Positions 1 through 6,058 of a DNA stretch of 6,058 nt are shown piece by piece (the stretch's first letter is position 1; every line of letters starts with the position of its first letter). The position numbers and the translations under genes were made by a program. The notes below the pieces were generated by a model. It worked only from the letters and a program-made list of their open reading frames with translations, did not search any database and was not told the origin of the DNA. The DNA comes from a virus: positions 1-6,058 of IMG/VR virus record IMGVR_UViG_3300020029_000013; one strand, given 5' to 3'.

Positions 1-121
1 CCTTAAGAGACATCGAAACCTTGAAAGACCTAGGGCCAGGATTTGCACGGGTGATGGGATTTTTACTCCTAAGATTTTCCGAATATTGAGGATTCGGAAT
101 TTCAATATCGAAGCGCTTTGA
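1..121. repeat. Terminal direct repeat, copy 1 (self-overlap of a circular genome assembly)
   Basis: Bases 1-121 (ccttaagagacatcg...aagcgctttga) are identical base for base to 5938-6058. The repeat lies inside an uninterrupted minus-strand reading frame. It is therefore redundancy from linearising a 5937-nt circle, not a biological LTR/ITR. Confidence 0.95.
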
Positions 122-1036
122 CCAATTACGTTCAAGTTCATTGGCGGTATCGAGGTTATTTAGACGCAAAGATTCTATAATCTCACCAGCTTGCTCACCA
201 AGGACTTGATTAAGAGCAGCCTGAGTATTCATCATAAAGGCCTGAGCAGACATAACATCACCTAAATGCTCGTTCTCAATACCCAAACGTTTAACCTCCG
301 CAGCAGTTAAAGCAGCTTGATTCTTTTTTTCATCAATAGTGCTCAAAAGAGTAGCATCAGAGATAAAAAGCGCATTCTTTTCAAGGCTTTCCTGTACCTT
401 AAGAACATCAGTAACAGCTAAATTATGTTTAGCAGCAGCCTCATCTAGAGCTACGCGAGTTTGAGCCATAAGAGTATAAAGCTGATGGCCAACGTTTTGG
501 TCGCTAATCGATTGAGCCTCGGCATTGTCGCGATTAGCAGCAGCCTTATTACGCTCAATGGTTGAATTGACTCCCATGGCATCAAGAGCAGTTCCAGCAG
601 CAGCAGAACCGACACCAGGAGGCAGCGGGCTCGAGAAATCAAAAGCTCCACCAGAAGGACCAGAAGCGCCTATAGAGCCGGCAGAGCCTCCAGACATGGT
701 AGCATTGACACCAACACCCGAAGAACCAAGAACGGCAGCGGGCGTAACACCAGCCTTGAGAAAACGGTCGAAAACCTTCGAAGGGTCGTTGTAGGCATTC
801 TCATAGTCAAACTGCTTTTGCCAGTTAGCGTAGTTAATCTCACCCTGCTTCTGCATCTGCTCCAACGCATACTGCTGCTGAAGCTTCATTTGTTTTTGCT
901 GATACTTCCATTGTCTCTTAAGGGATGGCTTAAAAAGACCAGAAGCAGCCTGACCGCCGGCAGAAAGACCCGCAGCACCGAGTATAGCACCTGTAGAAAC
1001 AGGGTCGACGTAAGACTTGAAATCAATAAGTCTCAT
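1..1036 (-). CDS. DNA pilot / minor capsid protein VP2 (phiX174 gpH functional analogue), 5' part; the ORF continues across the circular junction into 5937..5600 (457 aa in total)
   Basis: The ATG is at 1036-1034, one base after the TAA of the upstream ORF (TAA-T-ATG). I read every minus-strand codon from 1036 down to 2 and found no stop. The nearest in-frame upstream stop is TAG at 1078-1076. Base 1 plus 5937 and 5936 make GAT, which joins in frame to the track ORF 5600..5950 (1036-13=1023, divisible by 3). The product has a Gly/Ala-rich hydrophobic N-terminus (GAILGAAGLSAGGQAASGLF) and a Gln/Lys-rich coiled-coil-like stretch (KRQWKYQQKQMKLQQQYALEQMQKQ). Its block NDPSKVFDRFLKAGVTPAAVLG resembles, from memory, the conserved ..P..Q..R...AGLNP.. 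block of gokusho/alpavirus VP2. The C-terminal tail is Gly/Ser-rich. The gene lies downstream of the capsid gene, as in other Microviridae. Confidence 0.8.
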   Translation of the reverse strand, partial: MRLIDFKSYVDPVSTGAILGAAGLSAGGQAASGLFKPSLKRQWKYQQKQMKLQQQYALEQMQKQGEINYANWQKQFDYENAYNDPSKVFDRFLKAGVTPAAVLGSSGVGVNATMSGGSAGSIGASGPSGGAFDFSSPLPPGVGSAAAGTALDAMGVNSTIERNKAAANRDNAEAQSISDQNVGHQLYTLMAQTRVALDEAAAKHNLAVTDVLKVQESLEKNALFISDATLLSTIDEKKNQAALTAAEVKRLGIENEHLGDVMSAQAFMMNTQAALNQVLGEQAGEIIESLRLNNLDTANELERNWSKRFDIEIPNPQYSENLRSKNPITRANPGPRSFKVSMSLK

Positions 1037-1037
1037 A

Positions 1038-1229
1038 TTACGGAAGCGTAAAATTGTTCGAACGGATAATGTAATCTACGCGAACAGTGTCAATGTGAAC
1101 ACCTGTTCGAGCAACCTTTGCTTGAGCAGAACACGAGGCAAGAAAAAAGGCAGCCAAGGCAGCAACAATAGAAGAAACGAGTGTCCAAAACGCCTTCGAC
1201 TTATAAAATGGTTGTTTAGTATCAGACAT
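1038..1229 (-). CDS. 63-aa predicted lipoprotein (signal peptide II type), function unknown
   Basis: ATG at 1229-1227 and TAA at 1040-1038. The sequence is MSDTKQPFYKSKAFWTLVSSIVAALAAFFLASCSAQ... It has a positively charged n-region (K5, K10, K12), a hydrophobic core of about 18 residues, and a lipobox L-A-S-C with Cys33 (codon 1131-1133). A 30-residue polar tail follows. The ORF overlaps no other gene and sits between a structured spacer and the VP2 start. Confidence 0.6.
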   Translation of the reverse strand: MSDTKQPFYKSKAFWTLVSSIVAALAAFFLASCSAQAKVARTGVHIDTVRVDYIIRSNNFTLP

Positions 1230-1254
1230 AACTTAAAAAATTAAAGAACGATAG

Positions 1255-1332
1255 AAAAATGCGCGGCCTCTCCTGCAGTCGTTACCAATAACCTCTAGCA
1301 ATTCACGAACTCTTGCAAGAGGGGTCCGCGCA
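1255..1332 (-). terminator. GC-clamped long hairpin followed by a T5 run on the coding strand; candidate intrinsic terminator and/or ssDNA complementary-strand origin
   Basis: TGCGCGG (1260-1266) pairs perfectly with CCGCGCA (1326-1332). After a 1-nt bulge (t1325), pairing extends imperfectly through 1267-1277 with 1314-1324. A perfect 12-bp palindrome CTCTTGCAAGAG (1310-1321) is nested inside. On the minus strand the clamp is followed by TTTTT (1259-1255). The element lies in the largest noncoding gap of the genome (1230-1362). Confidence 0.45.
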
Positions 1333-1362
1333 CGTAGCATATATCGTCAAGTAAAGGATATA

Positions 1363-1659
1363 CTATTTTTCTTCAGAGTCAGAGGACGTCGAAGTAGGTT
1401 TTGACTTATCGAGCTGTGAATCAATAAGCTCCTGTCCGACTTCAAGACCATCAAACTTGTCCATGCGAGAGAACGAGTTAGGGTCAAAATCGATATCAGG
1501 ATTAAACTTTTCACCCTTATCAAAGTCAGACGAAGAGACCTCGACGTCAGGACGACCGGGGAGAACGTCGACAGAACCAGAACCATCGAGAACGGAGAGA
1601 ATACGCTGTCCGCGAGAAACATAATCTTCGCGGTCTTCAATCATCCAATCTAGTGCCAT
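1363..1659 (-). CDS. 98-aa highly acidic protein, function unknown (possible scaffolding-type protein)
   Basis: ATG at 1659-1657, 11 nt after the capsid gene stop. The protein has 24 Asp/Glu versus 11 Lys/Arg in 98 residues, and no hydrophobic segment. It lies immediately downstream of the major capsid gene. The competing 97-aa ORF (1347..1640) is in another frame and starts with TTG. Confidence 0.6.
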   Translation of the reverse strand: MALDWMIEDREDYVSRGQRILSVLDGSGSVDVLPGRPDVEVSSSDFDKGEKFNPDIDFDPNSFSRMDKFDGLEVGQELIDSQLDKSKPTSTSSDSEEK

Positions 1660-1670
1660 AAAATGTAATA

Positions 1671-3494
1671 TTAACGGTTAGACAAACGGGTTGCAAAGGT
1701 CTTGTTGATAAGATTCTTCTTCTGAACAGAATAAGCCATATTCACGAAAAAATTATCTTCTACATCAGAAGCGAAAGGAGAATTAACCTGCGACATATCA
1801 ACAAAAAGGGCAGGCGCATAATCAGCCTTTGAAGGCCAATAGGAACTCCAGTGTAATTGACGCTGCTGCACCCAATAGGCATAAAGAGAACGACCTTTAA
1901 CGTCTCCTGCGGTACTAGAAATTTGGCCCAGAACTTCGTCATAAGAGGCCCGAAACTCATTAAAGCAGGGCTCTTGCGAAAAAGTAGTCTCAACTACGCC
2001 ACCAACAAGATTCCCGAACCGCCAATTAGGTACGCTCTGATATCCTATATCATTGTAGATTGGATTGAAATAATCCGAGCCTCGATAATTCAAATAGTCA
2101 GGTTTAATCTGCGACCAATAATAAACAGGTCGGATACTTAGCATATCAATCAAATAACCGGGTTCACGGAAATAGTAAGACTGCCGGCGACCAAGGCGGT
2201 CGTTAAAAGCGATAGCGCCACCTTGCTGACCAAGCGGACCGGTGTTTGACGAATTGGCAAAATTATTCGGCCCGGATTGATTCATAATAATCTGTACATT
2301 AACAGTTTGCGAGGCGCTAAAAAGCAGCTTAGGTCGATCTACGTGCTCAATTTTGGAGGCAAAAAAAGTCTCCAGCCAGTCACTATAACGAGAACCGCCA
2401 GCACCAAGAAGGTCCTTATATTCCTGTAGACGCGAAGCAATGGCCAATTGAGGAATAGTCTGAACGCCAGTCATTGAAACGGCGGAACTACTGCCAAGAG
2501 GAAGAAGCCGACTAAATCGGTCCGGATTGGCCGGGACGACGGCCATAGGATGGGCAAGATTAAAAATAATAGGCTCAGCAAGACCCTTTGTGTTATCAAG
2601 CGAACTATACTGGTCGAGAGGAGCCTTATCACCCCAAATCTGAAGCGAGGTCGGTTGAGCTGCGACCGGATAGCCATCACCGGCAGCACCGGCAGCAGCA
2701 CCGGAAGAAGCAACATCAGACGCGATAATCTGCCGAAGCAAAGCAGAACGACAATAGGTATTATTAGAAGACGCTACAGCTGCAGGATAAAACTGACTCT
2801 CAAAATAAGCATCGAGAAATTCAAGATTACCATAACGTTGAGTGAAAAACGAATCCGAAGCACTCGTGTTAAATTTGTAGGTGCCATTGGTGGCGGTAGA
2901 GCGACCCGTTACAGTATAATACCAAGATGCGGGCCAAGCAAAGGAGTAAAGCCCCCACTGCGAATAAGAATAGTAGTTTCGGACAATATCCCAATAAGCA
3001 AGATACGTATCAGCGTTAGCCCAAACGCCTCCAACAATACCCGAAGGAAGCACAACACCAGAAGTTGAAGCGGGCGTAGTGAAATCAACAGAACGGTTAG
3101 ACACACGCAGCCAATACATAAGCGAATTAGAAAAAGTCGCAGTAACCGAAGGCGTCGCACCGGACGAAGGAAGTCCGGGGACCGCATTAATCCAATTCAA
3201 GGAGAGGTTATTCATATCGAATTTACTACTATTCGTACGCAGCTCAGGGTGATAAAGCTGCAGCGGCACCCAAAAACGATGCAAACGAATGGTGTAGGGG
3301 TTAAACGTCGGAACAGCAAGAGGATTGCTACGAACGTCGATACCCTGCTCAATAGAAACACGGTCACGAGAATTAATAAAATCAATCCGCACCGGATATA
3401 AAATACCCGGTGTGCACGTAAAAGCTTTACTCTCAGGAACATCATAGCGAGAGTAACCATTTACGACGTGTGAGATAAAAGGTTGTTTTCCCAT
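1671..3494 (-). CDS. Microviridae major capsid protein VP1 (phiX174 gpF family jelly-roll)
   Basis: 607-aa ORF with ATG at 3494-3492 and TAA at 1673-1671. Several blocks align, from memory, with phiX174 gpF. TIRLHRFWVPLQLY matches DIFTFYVPHRHVY. GGSRYSDWLETFFASKIEHVDRPKLLFSAS matches MQRYHDVISSFGGKTSYDADNRPLLVMRSN. YYFREPGYLIDMLSIRPVYY matches RFFVPEHGTMFTLALVRFPP. The size is typical of non-phiX microviruses. Confidence 0.95.
   Translation of the reverse strand: MGKQPFISHVVNGYSRYDVPESKAFTCTPGILYPVRIDFINSRDRVSIEQGIDVRSNPLAVPTFNPYTIRLHRFWVPLQLYHPELRTNSSKFDMNNLSLNWINAVPGLPSSGATPSVTATFSNSLMYWLRVSNRSVDFTTPASTSGVVLPSGIVGGVWANADTYLAYWDIVRNYYSYSQWGLYSFAWPASWYYTVTGRSTATNGTYKFNTSASDSFFTQRYGNLEFLDAYFESQFYPAAVASSNNTYCRSALLRQIIASDVASSGAAAGAAGDGYPVAAQPTSLQIWGDKAPLDQYSSLDNTKGLAEPIIFNLAHPMAVVPANPDRFSRLLPLGSSSAVSMTGVQTIPQLAIASRLQEYKDLLGAGGSRYSDWLETFFASKIEHVDRPKLLFSASQTVNVQIIMNQSGPNNFANSSNTGPLGQQGGAIAFNDRLGRRQSYYFREPGYLIDMLSIRPVYYWSQIKPDYLNYRGSDYFNPIYNDIGYQSVPNWRFGNLVGGVVETTFSQEPCFNEFRASYDEVLGQISSTAGDVKGRSLYAYWVQQRQLHWSSYWPSKADYAPALFVDMSQVNSPFASDVEDNFFVNMAYSVQKKNLINKTFATRLSNR
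2678..2695. repeat. Perfect tandem 9-nt (3-codon) duplication inside the capsid gene
   Basis: caccggcag occurs at 2678-2686 and again at 2687-2695. A degenerate third unit, cag+caccgg, follows at 2696-2704. On the minus strand this encodes the AAG-AAG part of the low-complexity segment SSGAAAGAAGDG. Confidence 0.8.
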
Positions 3495-3497
3495 AAA

Positions 3498-4568
3498 TTA
3501 AATAATTAGTTGAAGTTTATAATGGTCTCTCCAAAACTGAAGAATATCCAAATCTAGCCAAGTAGGGGGGTCGAAATCGGGCATCTGGCGAGAAGAGGCG
3601 GAAAAACGCATCAATTGCTTTTGCTCCCACGTATACGTCTCTCTACGGGATACGGAGGAATTGAGACCGAACCGATCAACACACAAAGACACGATACGCT
3701 TAACCAGAGAAGACTTGCTAAAACGTGCATAACTATCAGCAGCGGTAACCGAACGCATAACTTCATCTTCCGGTTTAAGATAACGAGAATAGTATCGAGG
3801 AATCGAGTAGTTATAATTGATACGCTTCTCAAAGTCAAAATAAGACCACGTCGAAGTACGGGCAGAAGGGCGAGGCATATAACCAAGAAAATCACCAACG
3901 CCAGCAGATACGAATTTTCGCGTATAACGGCGATGTTGGAGGAGGCAAGATAAAGATGTAAGGTTTCCATCTACAGTAACATATTTATCCGAAATTTCTT
4001 CGGGGTTAAATTGAATTTGTTTAGTAACATACTTTACGCAATAACGAGCACGCTTATGGGTAGCCTTTGCCAGCCACACAAAACCAAGGTCTCGAACGGC
4101 AGCGCGAATAGTATTATAGAGAACATTTGTGCCAAAGAGAAAGCCGTGAAAATGCAATCGAGGTTCATTTCCTATTTCGGGATGTGTACCAAACTCCTGA
4201 AAGAAAGCGTGCTTAAACGAATGACCGAGTTTATGTCGCAAACGTTCATTGAAGCGACGAATGAATCGAGAAGGATCGAGAAGGGCTTCATTATAATAAC
4301 TCGGAGCAATCGTTATAGTAATAAAAACAGCCTGCTGGTTATTAGCCTTGCAATAGGTAAGCTCACGCTCTAGGCGGACAAACCAATCATTACGCTGACG
4401 ACGCAGGCAGTCTTCACACTTTCCGCACGGGACCATCAGCCACTGACGAGCGATATCCCAGGGTCGAATAGCCAAAGCAGATTTAGCAACATCAGAACCT
4501 TCGCGACAAGGATTCTTCTTATCGAAATAACGACGATTTCGTATCCATATGGGGGAAGAGCAGGCCAT
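3498..4568 (-). CDS. Rolling-circle replication initiator VP4 (HUH endonuclease, phiX174 gpA-like)
   Basis: The HUH motifs appear in canonical order. Motif 1 is VFITITI. Motif 2 is RLHFHGFLF, with the HFH codons at 4146-4154. Motif 3 is YCVKYVTK, with two Tyr one helical turn apart (4029-4043), as in gpA. An N-terminal Cys cluster, PCGKCEDC, is also present. The track start at 4589 is a TTG. The first ATG (4568-4566) gives MACSSPIW... (356 aa) and overlaps the upstream stop as TAATG, so I place the start there. The stop is TAA at 3500-3498, 3 nt before the capsid ATG. Confidence 0.93.
   Translation of the reverse strand: MACSSPIWIRNRRYFDKKNPCREGSDVAKSALAIRPWDIARQWLMVPCGKCEDCLRRQRNDWFVRLERELTYCKANNQQAVFITITIAPSYYNEALLDPSRFIRRFNERLRHKLGHSFKHAFFQEFGTHPEIGNEPRLHFHGFLFGTNVLYNTIRAAVRDLGFVWLAKATHKRARYCVKYVTKQIQFNPEEISDKYVTVDGNLTSLSCLLQHRRYTRKFVSAGVGDFLGYMPRPSARTSTWSYFDFEKRINYNYSIPRYYSRYLKPEDEVMRSVTAADSYARFSKSSLVKRIVSLCVDRFGLNSSVSRRETYTWEQKQLMRFSASSRQMPDFDPPTWLDLDILQFWRDHYKLQLII
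3549..3556 (-). promoter_or_regulatory. TAnnTTTG box (Bacteroides-type -7 promoter element), candidate capsid-gene promoter
   Basis: Plus-strand caaatcta is TAGATTTG on the minus strand. It lies 54 nt upstream of the VP1 ATG, inside the 3' end of the Rep gene. A TTTC sits 16 nt further upstream as a weak -33 candidate. This is a motif match only. Confidence 0.25.
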
Positions 4569-4858
4569 TAAAAAAGACTTTTTAGGCAATCAAACTTAAT
4601 ATAAGGGTTAGTGCGACGACAACGAGCAAGATAGTCATTCGCGGGACTTTCGTCAACAAACCAAGCGATAGGAACTCGCTTTTTACCACGATATGCGCCA
4701 ACAGAATAACGATGAGGAACGCTATCAACAATAGGGGAAAATCTAGGTCTAAAATCGAAATAATCCATAATTTGAAAATATTGCTCTACACTTAAAGAAA
4801 AAGCCTGCGAGAGACTTTTCTCCCGCAGGACTACCGAGTTAAAGAACTCTTCCACCAA
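4568..4858 (-). CDS. Hypothetical protein, 66-96 aa depending on start
   Basis: The frame is open from TTG at 4858 (GTG at 4855) to TAA at 4570-4568. The first ATG is at 4768-4766 (MDYFDFRPRFSPIV..., 66 aa). The stop overlaps the Rep ATG (TAATG), which suggests translational coupling. A terminator-like hairpin at 4804-4829 lies in the non-ATG extension and favours the short form. I recognise no family. Confidence 0.5.
   Translation of the reverse strand: MVEEFFNSVVLREKSLSQAFSLSVEQYFQIMDYFDFRPRFSPIVDSVPHRYSVGAYRGKKRVPIAWFVDESPANDYLARCRRTNPYIKFDCLKSLF
4591..4598 (-). promoter_or_regulatory. TAnnTTTG box, candidate Rep promoter
   Basis: Plus-strand caaactta is TAAGTTTG on the minus strand. It lies 22 nt upstream of the Rep ATG at 4568. 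This is a motif match only. Confidence 0.25.
4791..4829 (-). terminator. Intrinsic-terminator-like hairpin on the coding strand
   Basis: On the minus strand the sequence is CCUGCGGGAGA-AAAG-UCUCUCGCAGG. This is an 11-bp stem at 4804-4814 with 4819-4829, made of ten Watson-Crick pairs plus one G:U, closed by a tetraloop. CUUUUUCUUUAAG (4803-4791) follows directly. On the plus strand the G:U position becomes an A:C mismatch, so the structure is better in the coding sense. It lies 47 nt after the stop of the 107-aa ORF. Confidence 0.55.
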
Positions 4859-4875
4859 GCGGGCGGGTAACTACC

Positions 4876-5199
4876 TTAGTTCCCCTTCCCTTCTTCTTTC
4901 GACGAGCTTTCATCGTGAGTTAGATTAGTACTAAACATAAGAATGAGCGTATTATCGAAATAATCGACCGAGAAATCCGGGTAAGCAACCAGAGCCTCTA
5001 CAAGACTAGAAATACGACAATGGTCAATATAAGGCGAGTCAGCAATACTAGAGTGCTCTACGTGGTCAGAAATAGGCGTATGAACAAGATTGTCAAGATG
5101 AAGCGCTTCAAATTGCCCATCTTTAATGTAGCCTACTTGTACTAAATCAATCTTAAGAGCCGGATTAATACGGCGAATAACGATGTGAACCTGTGTCAT
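4876..5199 (-). CDS. Hypothetical protein, 107 aa
   Basis: ATG at 5199-5197 and TAA at 4878-4876. It is in the same orientation as its neighbours and tightly spaced (a 23-nt gap upstream). It is acidic and His-rich, with a polar tail SSSKEEGKGN. I recognise no motif. Confidence 0.6.
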   Translation of the reverse strand: MTQVHIVIRRINPALKIDLVQVGYIKDGQFEALHLDNLVHTPISDHVEHSSIADSPYIDHCRISSLVEALVAYPDFSVDYFDNTLILMFSTNLTHDESSSKEEGKGN

Positions 5200-5222
5200 A
5201 ATAACATAATTTAACGTTTCAA

Positions 5223-5528
5223 TTAGAGCTTATCATAAAAACGCCTCCAAGCATCGGAGTGCTTAATCCAAAATTCGTAACCCTCAGGAGTTGCAGAAAA
5301 TAGAAAAGCGGAGGAAATGAGGGCTTCGGGGCCAAGATGAGACTTAAAATAAACATACTGGATGTGATCACGCAAGACGTCTCGAAAGGTTTTCTGAGCC
5401 GTAGGAACGCGATCGAAATTCGCCCTGTAGGCAGTGAATATACCTCGACGGACGAGCCACTCGATAAACGCATACTCTATAACATCGAGTATTAGTCTGT
5501 CACGCACTGGTTGTTCAAGCTTTCTCAT
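5223..5528 (-). CDS. Hypothetical protein, 101 aa; first gene after the main noncoding region
   Basis: ATG at 5528-5526 and TAA at 5225-5223. It is slightly basic and Trp/Phe/Tyr-rich, with C-terminal half SSAFLFSATPEGYEFWIKHSDAWRRFY. I cannot assign a family. Confidence 0.6.
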   Translation of the reverse strand: MRKLEQPVRDRLILDVIEYAFIEWLVRRGIFTAYRANFDRVPTAQKTFRDVLRDHIQYVYFKSHLGPEALISSAFLFSATPEGYEFWIKHSDAWRRFYDKL

Positions 5529-5554
5529 AATAATAAGGTTATTGGTTTACAGCA

Positions 5555-5562
5555 CAAATATA
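5555..5562 (-). promoter_or_regulatory. TAnnTTTG box, candidate promoter of the early/accessory gene block
   Basis: Plus-strand caaatata is TATATTTG on the minus strand. It lies 26 nt upstream of the ATG at 5528, inside the T-rich (coding-sense) 71-nt intergenic region 5529-5599. Confidence 0.35.
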
Positions 5563-5581
5563 ACAACAAAAATCTAAAATG

Positions 5582-5621
5582 AAAAAAAAAACAACAATAC
5601 TAACGAGATTTACGGGTATTG
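5582..5621 (-). terminator. Weak hairpin plus T10 run at the end of VP2
   Basis: caatac (5595-5600) pairs with gtattg (5616-5621) across a 15-nt loop that contains the VP2 stop TAG (5602-5600). On the minus strand TTG and ten T (5591-5582) follow. The stem is short and AT-rich, so it is weak as a terminator. Confidence 0.25.
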
Positions 5622-6058
5622 CCATACGTACTCGAATGGCCACTGCGAGACATCTCTGTTTTTGCGTAACCAACGACATTTCCTCTCGAATCATAACGAG
5701 TCGTAAGTGAAGAGCCCGCAGAACTGCTCGAAGAGCCGCCAGCAGAAATAGTGCCGGCAGCACGAGACATGCCTCCGCGAATTATGCCTGCGCCGGCGAC
5801 ACTAGCAGCAGCACCAACCAGAGCCTTAGAAATCTCAACATACGGGTCAAGCCTTGCATTACGAAGAGCAATACGGGCTTGCTCGGGAAGAAAGTCAGAT
5901 GCATTAGCTTCGTTTATAATAGTCTTATCGTGAAAATCCTTAAGAGACATCGAAACCTTGAAAGACCTAGGGCCAGGATTTGCACGGGTGATGGGATTTT
6001 TACTCCTAAGATTTTCCGAATATTGAGGATTCGGAATTTCAATATCGAAGCGCTTTGA
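5600..6058 (-). CDS. VP2 pilot protein, 3' part; 5938-6058 duplicates 1-121 and the unique part is 5600-5937
   Basis: This is the same reading frame as 1..1036 (-), joined through the circular junction. The frame is open from the window edge down to TAG at 5602-5600. The track lists only the piece from the internal Met at 5950 (MSLKDFHDK...). The C-terminus is Gly/Ser/Ala-rich (AGTISAGGSSSSSAGSSL). Confidence 0.8.
   Translation of the reverse strand, partial: SKRFDIEIPNPQYSENLRSKNPITRANPGPRSFKVSMSLKDFHDKTIINEANASDFLPEQARIALRNARLDPYVEISKALVGAAASVAGAGIIRGGMSRAAGTISAGGSSSSSAGSSLTTRYDSRGNVVGYAKTEMSRSGHSSTYGNTRKSR
5938..6058. repeat. Terminal direct repeat, copy 2 (self-overlap of a circular genome assembly)
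   Basis: Identical to 1-121 over all 121 nt. Confidence 0.95.

Follow-up and report, generated by a model that had tools for sequence, protein, structure and literature searches.

A conserved 63-codon gene beside the pilot-protein gene of Alistipes-infecting microviruses very probably encodes a pre-lipoprotein and may act at the host envelope

We analyzed a 6,058-nt stretch of viral DNA (positions 1 to 6,058 of IMG/VR record IMGVR_UViG_3300020029_000013; hereafter, the window) with a focus on ORF63, a small gene next to that of the DNA pilot protein VP2, whose 63-aa product, MSDTKQPFYKSKAFWTLVSSIVAALAAFFLASCSAQAKVARTGVHIDTVRVDYIIRSNNFTLP, begins at an ATG. The window carries a 121-bp exact terminal direct repeat (1-121 = 5938-6058) and is a circular genome of 5937 nt; VP2 is therefore split across the window ends, with its first 345 codons at 1036..1. 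The whole gene set lies on the minus strand (Table 1). A preliminary description of the window, made from its letters alone, had given the coordinates of ORF63, its ATG, and its 63-aa peptide, and re-reading the sequence returned the same values. It also returned the same stop–start junction, in which the TAA is followed by a lone T at 1037 and by the VP2 ATG at 1036-1034.

Table 1. Genes, peptide segments, and non-coding features of the window, with ORF63 divided into its predicted parts
Feature	Position in window	Strand	Remarks
ORF63, small pre-lipoprotein gene (very probable)	1038..1229	-	ATG 1229-1227, TAA 1040-1038
Predicted n-region, codons 1-12, MSDTKQPFYKSK	1194..1229	-	three Lys (K5, K10, K12), one Asp
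Predicted hydrophobic core and lipobox, codons 13-32, AFWTLVSSIVAALAAFFLAS	1134..1193	-	lipobox L30-A31-S32
Cys33, predicted lipid-attachment and SPase II cleavage site	1131..1133	-	near-universal in the family
Predicted mature peptide after the Cys, codons 34-63, SAQAKVARTGVHIDTVRVDYIIRSNNFTLP	1041..1130	-	predicted cationic amphipathic beta-hairpin
Stop-1 nt-start junction of ORF63 and VP2	1034..1040	-	TAA-T-ATG, read in the sequence
Conserved structured non-coding element	1242..1349	-	directly upstream of ORF63
VP2/DNA pilot gene	1036..1 then 5937..5600	-	457 aa; PHROG 8689 pilot protein, E = 1e-9
Acidic 98-aa ORF	1659..1363	-	
Capsid gene VP1	3494..1671	-	Pfam Phage_F
rep/VP4	4589..3498	-	Pfam REP_ORF2-G2P; PHROG replication initiation
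Rep-embedded hydrophobic ORF, 119 codons, METLHLYLASSNIAVIRENSYLLALVIF...PPYPVERRIRGSKSN	3611..3970	-	+1 frame of rep
Basic 24-aa ORF, MKARRKKKGRGTKVVTRPLGGRVL	4839..4913	-	counterpart of the basic end of long forms; overlaps the end of the 107-aa ORF
Three small ORFs preceding rep		-	

By its substitution pattern, ORF63 is a real gene under selection. Across 85 genomes of the window clade, the ratio of nonsynonymous to synonymous diversity (pN/pS) was 0.137 in its own frame and above 2 in both other frames, synonymous sites were near saturation (pS 0.63), and polymorphic sites were distributed 25/10/61 over the three codon positions. The gene was full length in 71/71 complete clade genomes, and its mean identity among them was 90%, compared with 86% for rep/VP4, 83% for the 98-aa ORF, 71% for VP1, and 69% for VP2, making ORF63 the best conserved sizeable protein of the genome. 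Searching about 5.8 billion proteins returned 377 homologues, the top 120 of them at 84-98% identity, and a homologue is present, at identities down to 56%, in 42 GenBank microvirus genomes from pig, civet, rodent, lemur, and tortoise feces. Six VP1 relatives gave no strong tblastn match; all six still bear a 65-78-aa, Cys-containing ORF of the lipobox type abutting VP2. Therefore, the gene, present in every clade member examined, looks universal in the clade.

Comparison across the family indicates that ORF63 very probably encodes a genuine pre-lipoprotein of an Alistipes-infecting (Bacteroidota) microvirus clade. The Lys-rich n-region, the hydrophobic core, and the lipobox LAS-C33 that the preliminary description had named can all be read in the peptide, and the pattern is kept across the family. 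Residues 13-32 form a run of 20 uncharged residues that ends in the lipobox before C33, and the peptide conforms to a PROSITE PS51257-type rule, applied by eye and by script (Cys at position 35 or earlier, K/R near the start, uncharged residues at -10 to -5, and A/G/S at -1), as well as to the lipobox consensus [LVI][ASTVI][GAS]-C. The lipobox Cys is found in 279/280 unique family members, the lone exception being a frameshifted sequence. Among these 279, position -3 is Leu in 81% and position -2 is S, A, T, or V in 97%, while position -1 is always S, G, or A (double-Cys cases being scored at the second Cys). A K-S/T-K motif preceding the hydrophobic core is conserved, and in alignment A1 K12 is invariant, together with F14, W15, T16, L17, A23, A24, A27, and F29 of the core. 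In alignment A3, which includes foreign leaders and the divergent type-B mature peptides described below, Cys33 and D47 are the sole invariant columns. AlphaFold2 places a helix over residues 12-32, with a predicted local distance difference test score (pLDDT) of about 88, that ends just before the Cys.

Leader and mature part swap independently within the family, which is the behavior of a true lipoprotein signal. The same mature peptide stands behind unrelated hydrophobic leaders, with the lipobox kept, in L012, L013, L122, P0142, and P0158; these foreign leaders end in LTSC and STSC in two Alistipes prophages and in FPSC in P0142. Conversely, the same leader precedes differing mature peptides, namely type B (CTTRHYVVQSASSIKSGDTTRTTITYEQVGNFKRP) in L120, L121, L123, and L124 and further types in P0171, P0173, and L014. 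As a control, the lipobox-like Cys of another hydrophobic ORF of the same genome, embedded in rep, is not conserved in relatives.

The type-B mature peptide reads C-T-T/A-R-H-Y-V-V-Q-S-A-S-S-x-K-S-G-D-T-T-R-T-T-I-T-Y-E-Q-x-G-N-F-K-R-P behind a leader like that of type A. The two types share just the Cys, the Asp, and the N-F-x-x-P end, and two type-B genomes have L-E-S-C as the lipobox. Which type a phage carries does not track its VP1 or VP2 similarity. Two further proteins, P0161 and P0170, were considered as homologues and rejected, both being repeat proteins whose similarity we read as a local motif; P0170 consists of HYDIN/ASH Ig-like domains, and its last hairpin has a similar G-x-H-x-D-T-V motif, which we do not take as homology.

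Cleavage at Cys33 would leave 31 residues, and the count given in the preliminary description is borne out by the sequence. Within this mature part, AlphaFold2 predicts strands at residues 35-42 and 48-55 with modest confidence (pLDDT about 60-66), and G43, H45, D47, T48, and V49 are invariant in alignment A1. Surface-exposed lipoproteins of Bacteroidota carry an export signal after the Cys, K-(D/E)2 or Q-A-(D/E)2 (PMC5080379). No such acidic signal follows the Cys of ORF63, as had been claimed: the mature N-terminus is C-SAQAKVAR, and D or E occurs anywhere in +2..+6 in just 5/279 members. The lipopeptide should therefore face the periplasm, an orientation that we infer and that the composition of the family supports.

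The one-base junction with VP2 is a regular feature of the gene, a stop followed by a single base and the start (TAG/TAA/TGA-N-ATG) being found in 98/106 genomes that bear its short form. As for the earlier statement that ORF63 overlaps nothing, only two short same-strand, off-frame ORFs overlap it (1076..1168 and 1090..1188); neither is conserved, and they are full length in 2/71 and 21/71 clade genomes, respectively. Gene callers mostly give a product of 100 aa (80 of the top 120 homologues), and 37 codons upstream of the ATG are open in many close relatives. We rejected this gene model. The upstream frame is closed by a TAA at 1235-1233 in the window and is also closed in 35/85 close clade genomes, in divergent relatives the matching Met is preceded, within a few codons, by a stop, and the 37-codon extension coincides with the conserved structured element. 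On this comparative evidence the upstream extension is non-coding, and the family annotation should read 63 aa, not 100 aa. Fusion of the gene to VP2, suggested by GenBank features that are labeled "similar to VP2" and cover the homologue (H18-H22), was likewise rejected, L007 having a TAA after the lipoprotein module.

The structured element, 108 nt between the 98-aa ORF and ORF63, is nearly invariant in the 85 genomes, although the synonymous sites of ORF63 are saturated. It folds into a long hairpin (minimum free energy -40 kcal/mol, z = -2.25), for which RNAalifold gave 29 pairs, 6 of them with compensatory changes, from 26 sequences. The stems are an outer GACGATA/TATCGTT, a GC stem GTGCGCGG.CC/GG.CCGCGCA, and an inner hairpin, and the GC-rich stem is followed by TTTTTC. 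When the whole window was searched against Rfam, the element had no match, and elsewhere the one hit, to CrcZ, was below threshold. ORF63 showed no obvious promoter of its own in simple scans for sigma-70 promoters and terminators, which are uninformative for a Bacteroidota host. The element probably sets the expression of ORF63 and VP2, as a terminator or attenuator, or else serves as a single-stranded DNA (ssDNA) or complementary-strand origin hairpin; its start, ACTTGACGATAT, resembles the origin core of phiX174. In some close relatives (L031, L079, and L094), ~95 nt of additional GC-rich sequence (…GGCGAGGTGACGCATTTCGCGGTTCGGAGAACCGCCCCGAACG…) separate the element from the ATG.

Bacterial genomes point to the host. 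A first genome scan gave no match. A second, guided by a profile and covering a single genome for each bacterial and archaeal species, gave four, all in Alistipes and all prophages, so no cellular homologue was found. One match is in an isolate, A. montrealensis kh20 (L011 7935-12793), and the others (L012-L014) are in Alistipes metagenome-assembled genomes. Each stands beside microvirus rep, capsid, and/or pilot genes and is thus an integrated microvirus, which agrees with the Bacteroidota host guessed in the preliminary description. The prophages contain the lipoprotein gene, rep, the capsid gene, a small ORF, and the pilot gene; in L011, the lipoprotein gene marks the edge of the prophage. 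Both there and in other lineages of free phages, it occupies the interval from VP2 to rep, immediately upstream of rep, as it does in the remaining prophages, and its linkage to VP2 is therefore not obligatory. The expectation that relatives would carry a lipobox ORF in the same place thus held for the ORF and its Cys, while the position next to VP2 proved not to be universal.

In a large part of the family, the open frame extends well beyond the lipoprotein module. About 30/54 family representatives (clusters at 50% identity) are long forms of 172-223 aa, roughly 195 aa (L006, L011, L095-L098, L100, L101, and L110; P0124-P0168). Each begins with the module, 60 residues long, and continues through about 110 residues that are rich in S/T/P/L and poorly conserved to a basic end, RRGGRRGKPRPKIKTIPLGGSHL, which is conserved and near which lies a short hydrophobic patch. 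Such openness is far commoner than expected, the chance of about 130 open codons in the module frame being about 0.02 per lineage. Within the long-form frame, pN/pS is 0.10-0.21 in the module and 0-0.11 in the last 25 codons, compared with 0.8-1.9 in the middle; there, frame +2 is selected instead and holds a gene of about 135 aa with a pN/pS of 0.18-0.20. The basic end is a separate conserved peptide of 24-27 aa with its own ATG or GTG, and an in-frame GTG or ATG occurs 27-38 codons before the stop in 9/9 long-form loci examined. Because selection acts on the module and on the end, with another frame selected between them, the long ORFs appear to be mosaics of three genes. We did not accept the form of roughly 195 aa as an ancestral, single functional polypeptide, since selection in frame covers only the first 60 and last 25 codons.

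The window clade has a counterpart of the basic end in its 24-aa ORF, whose Met and sequence are kept, at 93% identity, in the >80 clade genomes where it was found. In size and in pattern, a basic N-terminus and a hydrophobic-GG-x-x-hydrophobic end, it resembles protein J, the DNA-binding packaging protein of G4 and alpha3. In the same clade, the hydrophobic patch of the long forms falls in a frame that is often closed.

Other genes that might lyse the host were also sought. The preliminary description had seen no muralytic enzyme in the genome, and our searches concur: the small ORFs have no Pfam, PHROG, or NCBIfam family match, and a tblastn search for M15 peptidase was negative. An M15 peptidase is carried by many other gut microviruses, among them the cultured Bacteroides fragilis phage phiHBP1 (PMC13064476). 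These peptidases are related to the endolysins of Bacteroides dsDNA phages (216 phage records, about 66 microviruses), and their genes are located between VP2 and rep, the interval that holds the lipoprotein gene in some lineages. An M15 peptidase was absent from all of about 125 loci with the lipoprotein gene, and none of the 8 M15-bearing microvirus genomes (L126, which is phiHBP1, PV598014, with the peptidase gene at 84-488; L127; L128; and L130-L134) has a credible small lipoprotein ORF. This non-overlap would fit alternative solutions to lysis, though weakly, because the two sets belong to separate lineages that also differ in gene order.

The hydrophobic ORF embedded in rep is a second candidate within the genome. 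It has two long hydrophobic blocks and is open in 67/71 clade genomes, and exactly along its length the synonymous diversity of rep, otherwise about 0.47, is reduced to about 0.17. Relatives whose rep is just 40-75% identical have an open frame of 116-133 codons at the same site, with the motifs ENSYLLALVI, HVLASLLW, and PPYPVE in common. The ORF has no family match; judging from these constraints, it probably encodes a membrane protein within another gene, an arrangement also used by phiX174. As for rep itself, the ORF as listed has a TTG start in the window 4566-4589 region (MPKKSFLMACSS...). Relatives begin with MACS.../MCSS..., and rep therefore probably starts at the ATG 4568-4566, directly at the stop of the 96-aa ORF.

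Small lipoproteins of phages and plasmids are well known, among them Llp, Cor, Rz1, and the colicin-lysis proteins. As far as profile searches go, ORF63 is not a member of the Llp, Cor, Rz1, or colicin-lysis families. Pfam gave no family at E <= 0.1, NCBIfam nothing above noise, and a sequence profile search of the PDB nothing at E <= 10; the hits to phrog_14165 (E = 0.007), to a YgdI/YgdR lipoprotein (E = 0.22), and to PDC-M02A (E = 0.02) are at noise level. In the literature consulted, we found no description of a lipoprotein in any microvirus, nor of the ORF63 family. The sole trace is the automatic name of an nr/GenBank entry, DAW10193.1 "MAG TPA: lipoprotein [Microviridae sp.]", which is 89% identical over all 63 aa.

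A role in lysis or in superinfection exclusion, as suggested in the preliminary description, is neither shown nor excluded by these observations, and the functional reading that follows is one we infer. Our preferred reading, offered tentatively, is that ORF63 may be a host-envelope effector for progeny release, acting as a single-gene lysis factor that resembles the colicin-lysis lipoproteins rather than phiX174 E. The protein would be made late and at a low level together with VP2, because the gene lies behind a conserved hairpin after the capsid/scaffold genes and one base from the pilot gene. It would be exported via Sec, after which host Lgt and LspA would lipidate it and cut it at Cys33. 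One product would be a cationic beta-hairpin of 31 residues that carries a lipid at its N-terminus and stays at the periplasmic side of the envelope; the other would be the signal peptide, 32 residues long and unusually conserved, which would remain in the inner membrane. The mature lipopeptide and the stable signal peptide would jointly damage the envelope. The presence of the gene across the clade, its rank as the best conserved sizeable protein, and the lack of overlap with M15 in our sample speak in favor of a core function, and the family searches recognized no other lysis gene in the genome. To our knowledge, the E gene is missing from most microviruses. It is possible, if somewhat doubtful, that ORF63 represents the first lipoprotein-type single-gene phage lysis protein and supplies the missing lysis function of Bacteroidota microviruses that have no E. 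In that case, host processing would turn one tiny precursor into two products active on the envelope, the signal peptide kept in the inner membrane and the lipid-anchored hairpin; the hairpin might jam an envelope-biogenesis machine from the periplasm by strand pairing, a class of target different from MurA, MraY, and MurJ of known small-phage lysis proteins.

Several observations weigh against a role in lysis, or against parts of the mechanism just outlined. No homology to any lysis protein was found, the Pfam search giving no Lysis_col match. At 19-20 residues (266/279 members), the uncharged stretch exceeds the usual length in SPase II substrates and would suit an uncleaved anchor; the leader is unusually conserved for a mere signal peptide, more so than the mature part (within-clade pN/pS 0.098 vs 0.18); and a few members have an atypical lipobox with Glu at -2 (LESC in L121 and L124; MEGC in P0172). 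In many lineages, no stop closes the module, and the frame stays open for about 140 codons beyond it. Retention in prophages, two genomic positions, and swapping of mature types are also typical of exclusion genes, and adjacency to VP2 is not universal, which counts against ORF63 as "the" lysis gene. The mutual exclusivity of M15 and lipoprotein genes may reflect lineage difference alone. Finally, the rep-embedded ORF is at least as plausible as an E-like lysis candidate and may be a better one.

The main rival, which we rate as rather unlikely, is a superinfection-exclusion or receptor-masking lipoprotein of the T5 Llp or Cor kind. Its lipopeptide would bind the periplasmic face of an outer-membrane receptor (e.g. 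a SusC-type TonB-dependent transporter) or the incoming pilot-protein conduit, and would thereby block related microviruses and shield progeny from inactivation on cell debris. The absence of a surface-export signal suits this reading, as do a temperate habit of the phages, seen in the retention of the gene in four Alistipes prophages and at the very edge of one, its movement between two positions, and the exchange of mature types A and B between phages whose capsids are no less alike. Its neighbor in the window clade is, moreover, an entry (pilot) gene, much as llp stands beside the gene for the receptor-binding protein. PADLOC adds a weak match to PDC-M02A, the lone hint of a defense or exclusion family, which is not significant (E = 0.02 for ORF63; 0.003 for P0127); it spans residues 27-61 of ORF63 and 27-62 of P0127, that is, the lipobox and the hairpin. 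Against exclusion, neither Pfam nor PHROG gave any homology to Llp or Cor, the single Cys of ORF63 leaves no counterpart of the Cys11-Cys58 disulfide of Llp, and the mature part is half the size of Llp. Whereas exclusion genes are usually accessory, this gene looks universal in its clade and is more conserved than VP1 and VP2, with no co-variation between mature type and VP2 or VP1 similarity; it also sits in the late structural block, coupled to VP2 by one base, with no obvious promoter of its own.

That coupling to VP2, in 98/106 genomes, would be expected of a pilot-protein or morphogenesis accessory, that is, a membrane-tethered partner that holds, chaperones, or positions VP2 or ties assembly to the envelope. 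Very high conservation, as in core replication-cycle proteins, fits such a role, and the VP2 partner has the hydrophobic N-terminus and coiled coil that would accompany it, VP2/H proteins with N-terminal transmembrane segments and coiled coils having been described (PMC3091885). We nevertheless consider this role distinctly improbable: the gene is upstream of rep rather than VP2-adjacent in other lineages and in four/four prophages, VP2 falls to 32-41% identity where the lipoprotein keeps 56-75%, mature types do not co-vary with VP2, and microvirus assembly, which is cytoplasmic, would be set apart from a periplasmic mature peptide. A shade less probable again is an uncleaved signal-anchor whose transmembrane helix is the effector, either as a "protein antibiotic" like phiX174 E on MraY or LysM on MurJ or by inhibiting LspA, Lgt, or Sec; in this reading, the hairpin in the periplasm would be accessory and the Cys conserved for some other reason. 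The uncharged stretch has a membrane-spanning length in nearly all members, the leader evolves more slowly than the mature part, its residues 12-32 form the one confident AlphaFold2 helix, and its KKFWTL..IVAAL.AFF pattern is kept across phages with VP1 just 40-70% identical, even when the mature type changes. The known small-phage single-gene lysis proteins with identified targets all act in or at the inner membrane (PMC3394797). Still, a specific effector should not be replaceable, and the five foreign-leader sequences listed above replace it while keeping the lipobox Cys. The lipoprotein model alone predicts that the Cys and a small -1 residue are always kept; by contrast, the lipobox-like Cys of the rep-embedded ORF is not conserved.

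Least probable, and in our view very unlikely, is a spanin-like disruptor of the outer membrane, with the short form as an o-spanin (Rz1) and the roughly 195-aa forms as unimolecular spanins. ORF63 would be a small lipoprotein of the right kind, the long forms in about 30/54 clusters combine an S/T/P-rich middle with a hydrophobic patch and a basic end, and their open frame is improbable by chance. Yet no holin or endolysin that would precede spanin action was found with Pfam, PHROG, or NCBIfam, and the mature part lacks both Pro-richness and a further Cys. Moreover, the middle of the long forms is unconstrained in the module frame and selected in another, the basic end has its own start codon as a peptide apart, and the patch lies in an often-closed frame in the window clade.

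According to Roux et al., phiX174 is the sole microvirus with a known lysis mechanism (PMC3394797). For the lysis question outside the phiX174 group, ORF63 is a candidate of about 190 bases that looks universal in its clade, and an identifiable host genus, together with an isolate that carries a related prophage (A. montrealensis kh20), makes that question directly testable. Bacteroidota microviruses are among the most abundant gut phages. Should ORF63 prove to be a lysis factor, it would show how Bacteroidota can be killed from the periplasm by a novel route, and it might point to a novel antibacterial target. As an exclusion factor, it would have no described precedent among ssDNA phages of this family, with consequences for the population structure of gut microviruses.

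Among known systems, phiX174 E is embedded in the scaffold gene, has no lipobox, and undergoes no signal cleavage; its N-terminal transmembrane helix acts on MraY, and its basic C-terminus is dispensable. With E, LysM, and MS2 L, ORF63 shares the character of a tiny membrane-directed protein with a conserved hydrophobic helix in a minimal phage that has no muralytic enzyme. Unlike E, it is free-standing, with an invariant lipobox Cys and a conserved, predicted periplasmic hairpin, which sets it apart from the E type; the rep-embedded ORF is the more E-like element of the genome. Like Rz1 and T1 gp11, ORF63 appears to be a small phage lipoprotein whose gene abuts one for a protein with an N-terminal membrane segment and a coiled coil, and long forms elsewhere start from a lipobox and finish in a hydrophobic patch with a basic tail, where a unimolecular spanin joins an N-terminal lipobox to a C-terminal transmembrane domain in one polypeptide. 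Rz1-like o-spanins have a Pro-rich periplasmic domain and Cys for intermolecular disulfides, and their genes are paired with an i-spanin gene in a holin–endolysin cassette. ORF63 nonetheless has a single Pro, its last residue, and no Cys beyond the lipobox, so it does not have the make-up of an o-spanin. No holin–endolysin context was found for it, its neighbor is a virion pilot protein, and selection on amino acids is absent from the long-form linker.

Llp of T5 binds the periplasmic face of its receptor FhuA, closing it from inside, and contains a Cys11-Cys58 disulfide (PMC9586334). ORF63 has a single Cys and hence no disulfide of the Llp type. Like Llp and Cor, it would be a small phage lipoprotein on the periplasmic side, and its gene is beside a host-entry gene. 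Pfam and PHROG searches gave no homology to either, and its mature part is about half the size. Rather than being accessory, ORF63 looks universal and is highly conserved in its clade, and it lies in the late block of an ssDNA phage.

Colicin-lysis lipoproteins have a mature part of about 28-33 residues, and their stable signal peptide contributes to lethality and release. ORF63 and the colicin lysis or bacteriocin release proteins (BRP; Lysis_col; pCloDF13 BRP, ColE1, ColA) show no sequence similarity. They further differ in setting (a plasmid operon there, a phage genome here), in leader length (about 17-21 residues there, 32 in ORF63), and in host (Enterobacteria there, Bacteroidota for ORF63). 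What they would have in common is a very small pre-lipoprotein with a mature part of similar size (31 residues in ORF63), a signal peptide that may itself be functional, and a design in which a single gene would suffice for envelope damage.

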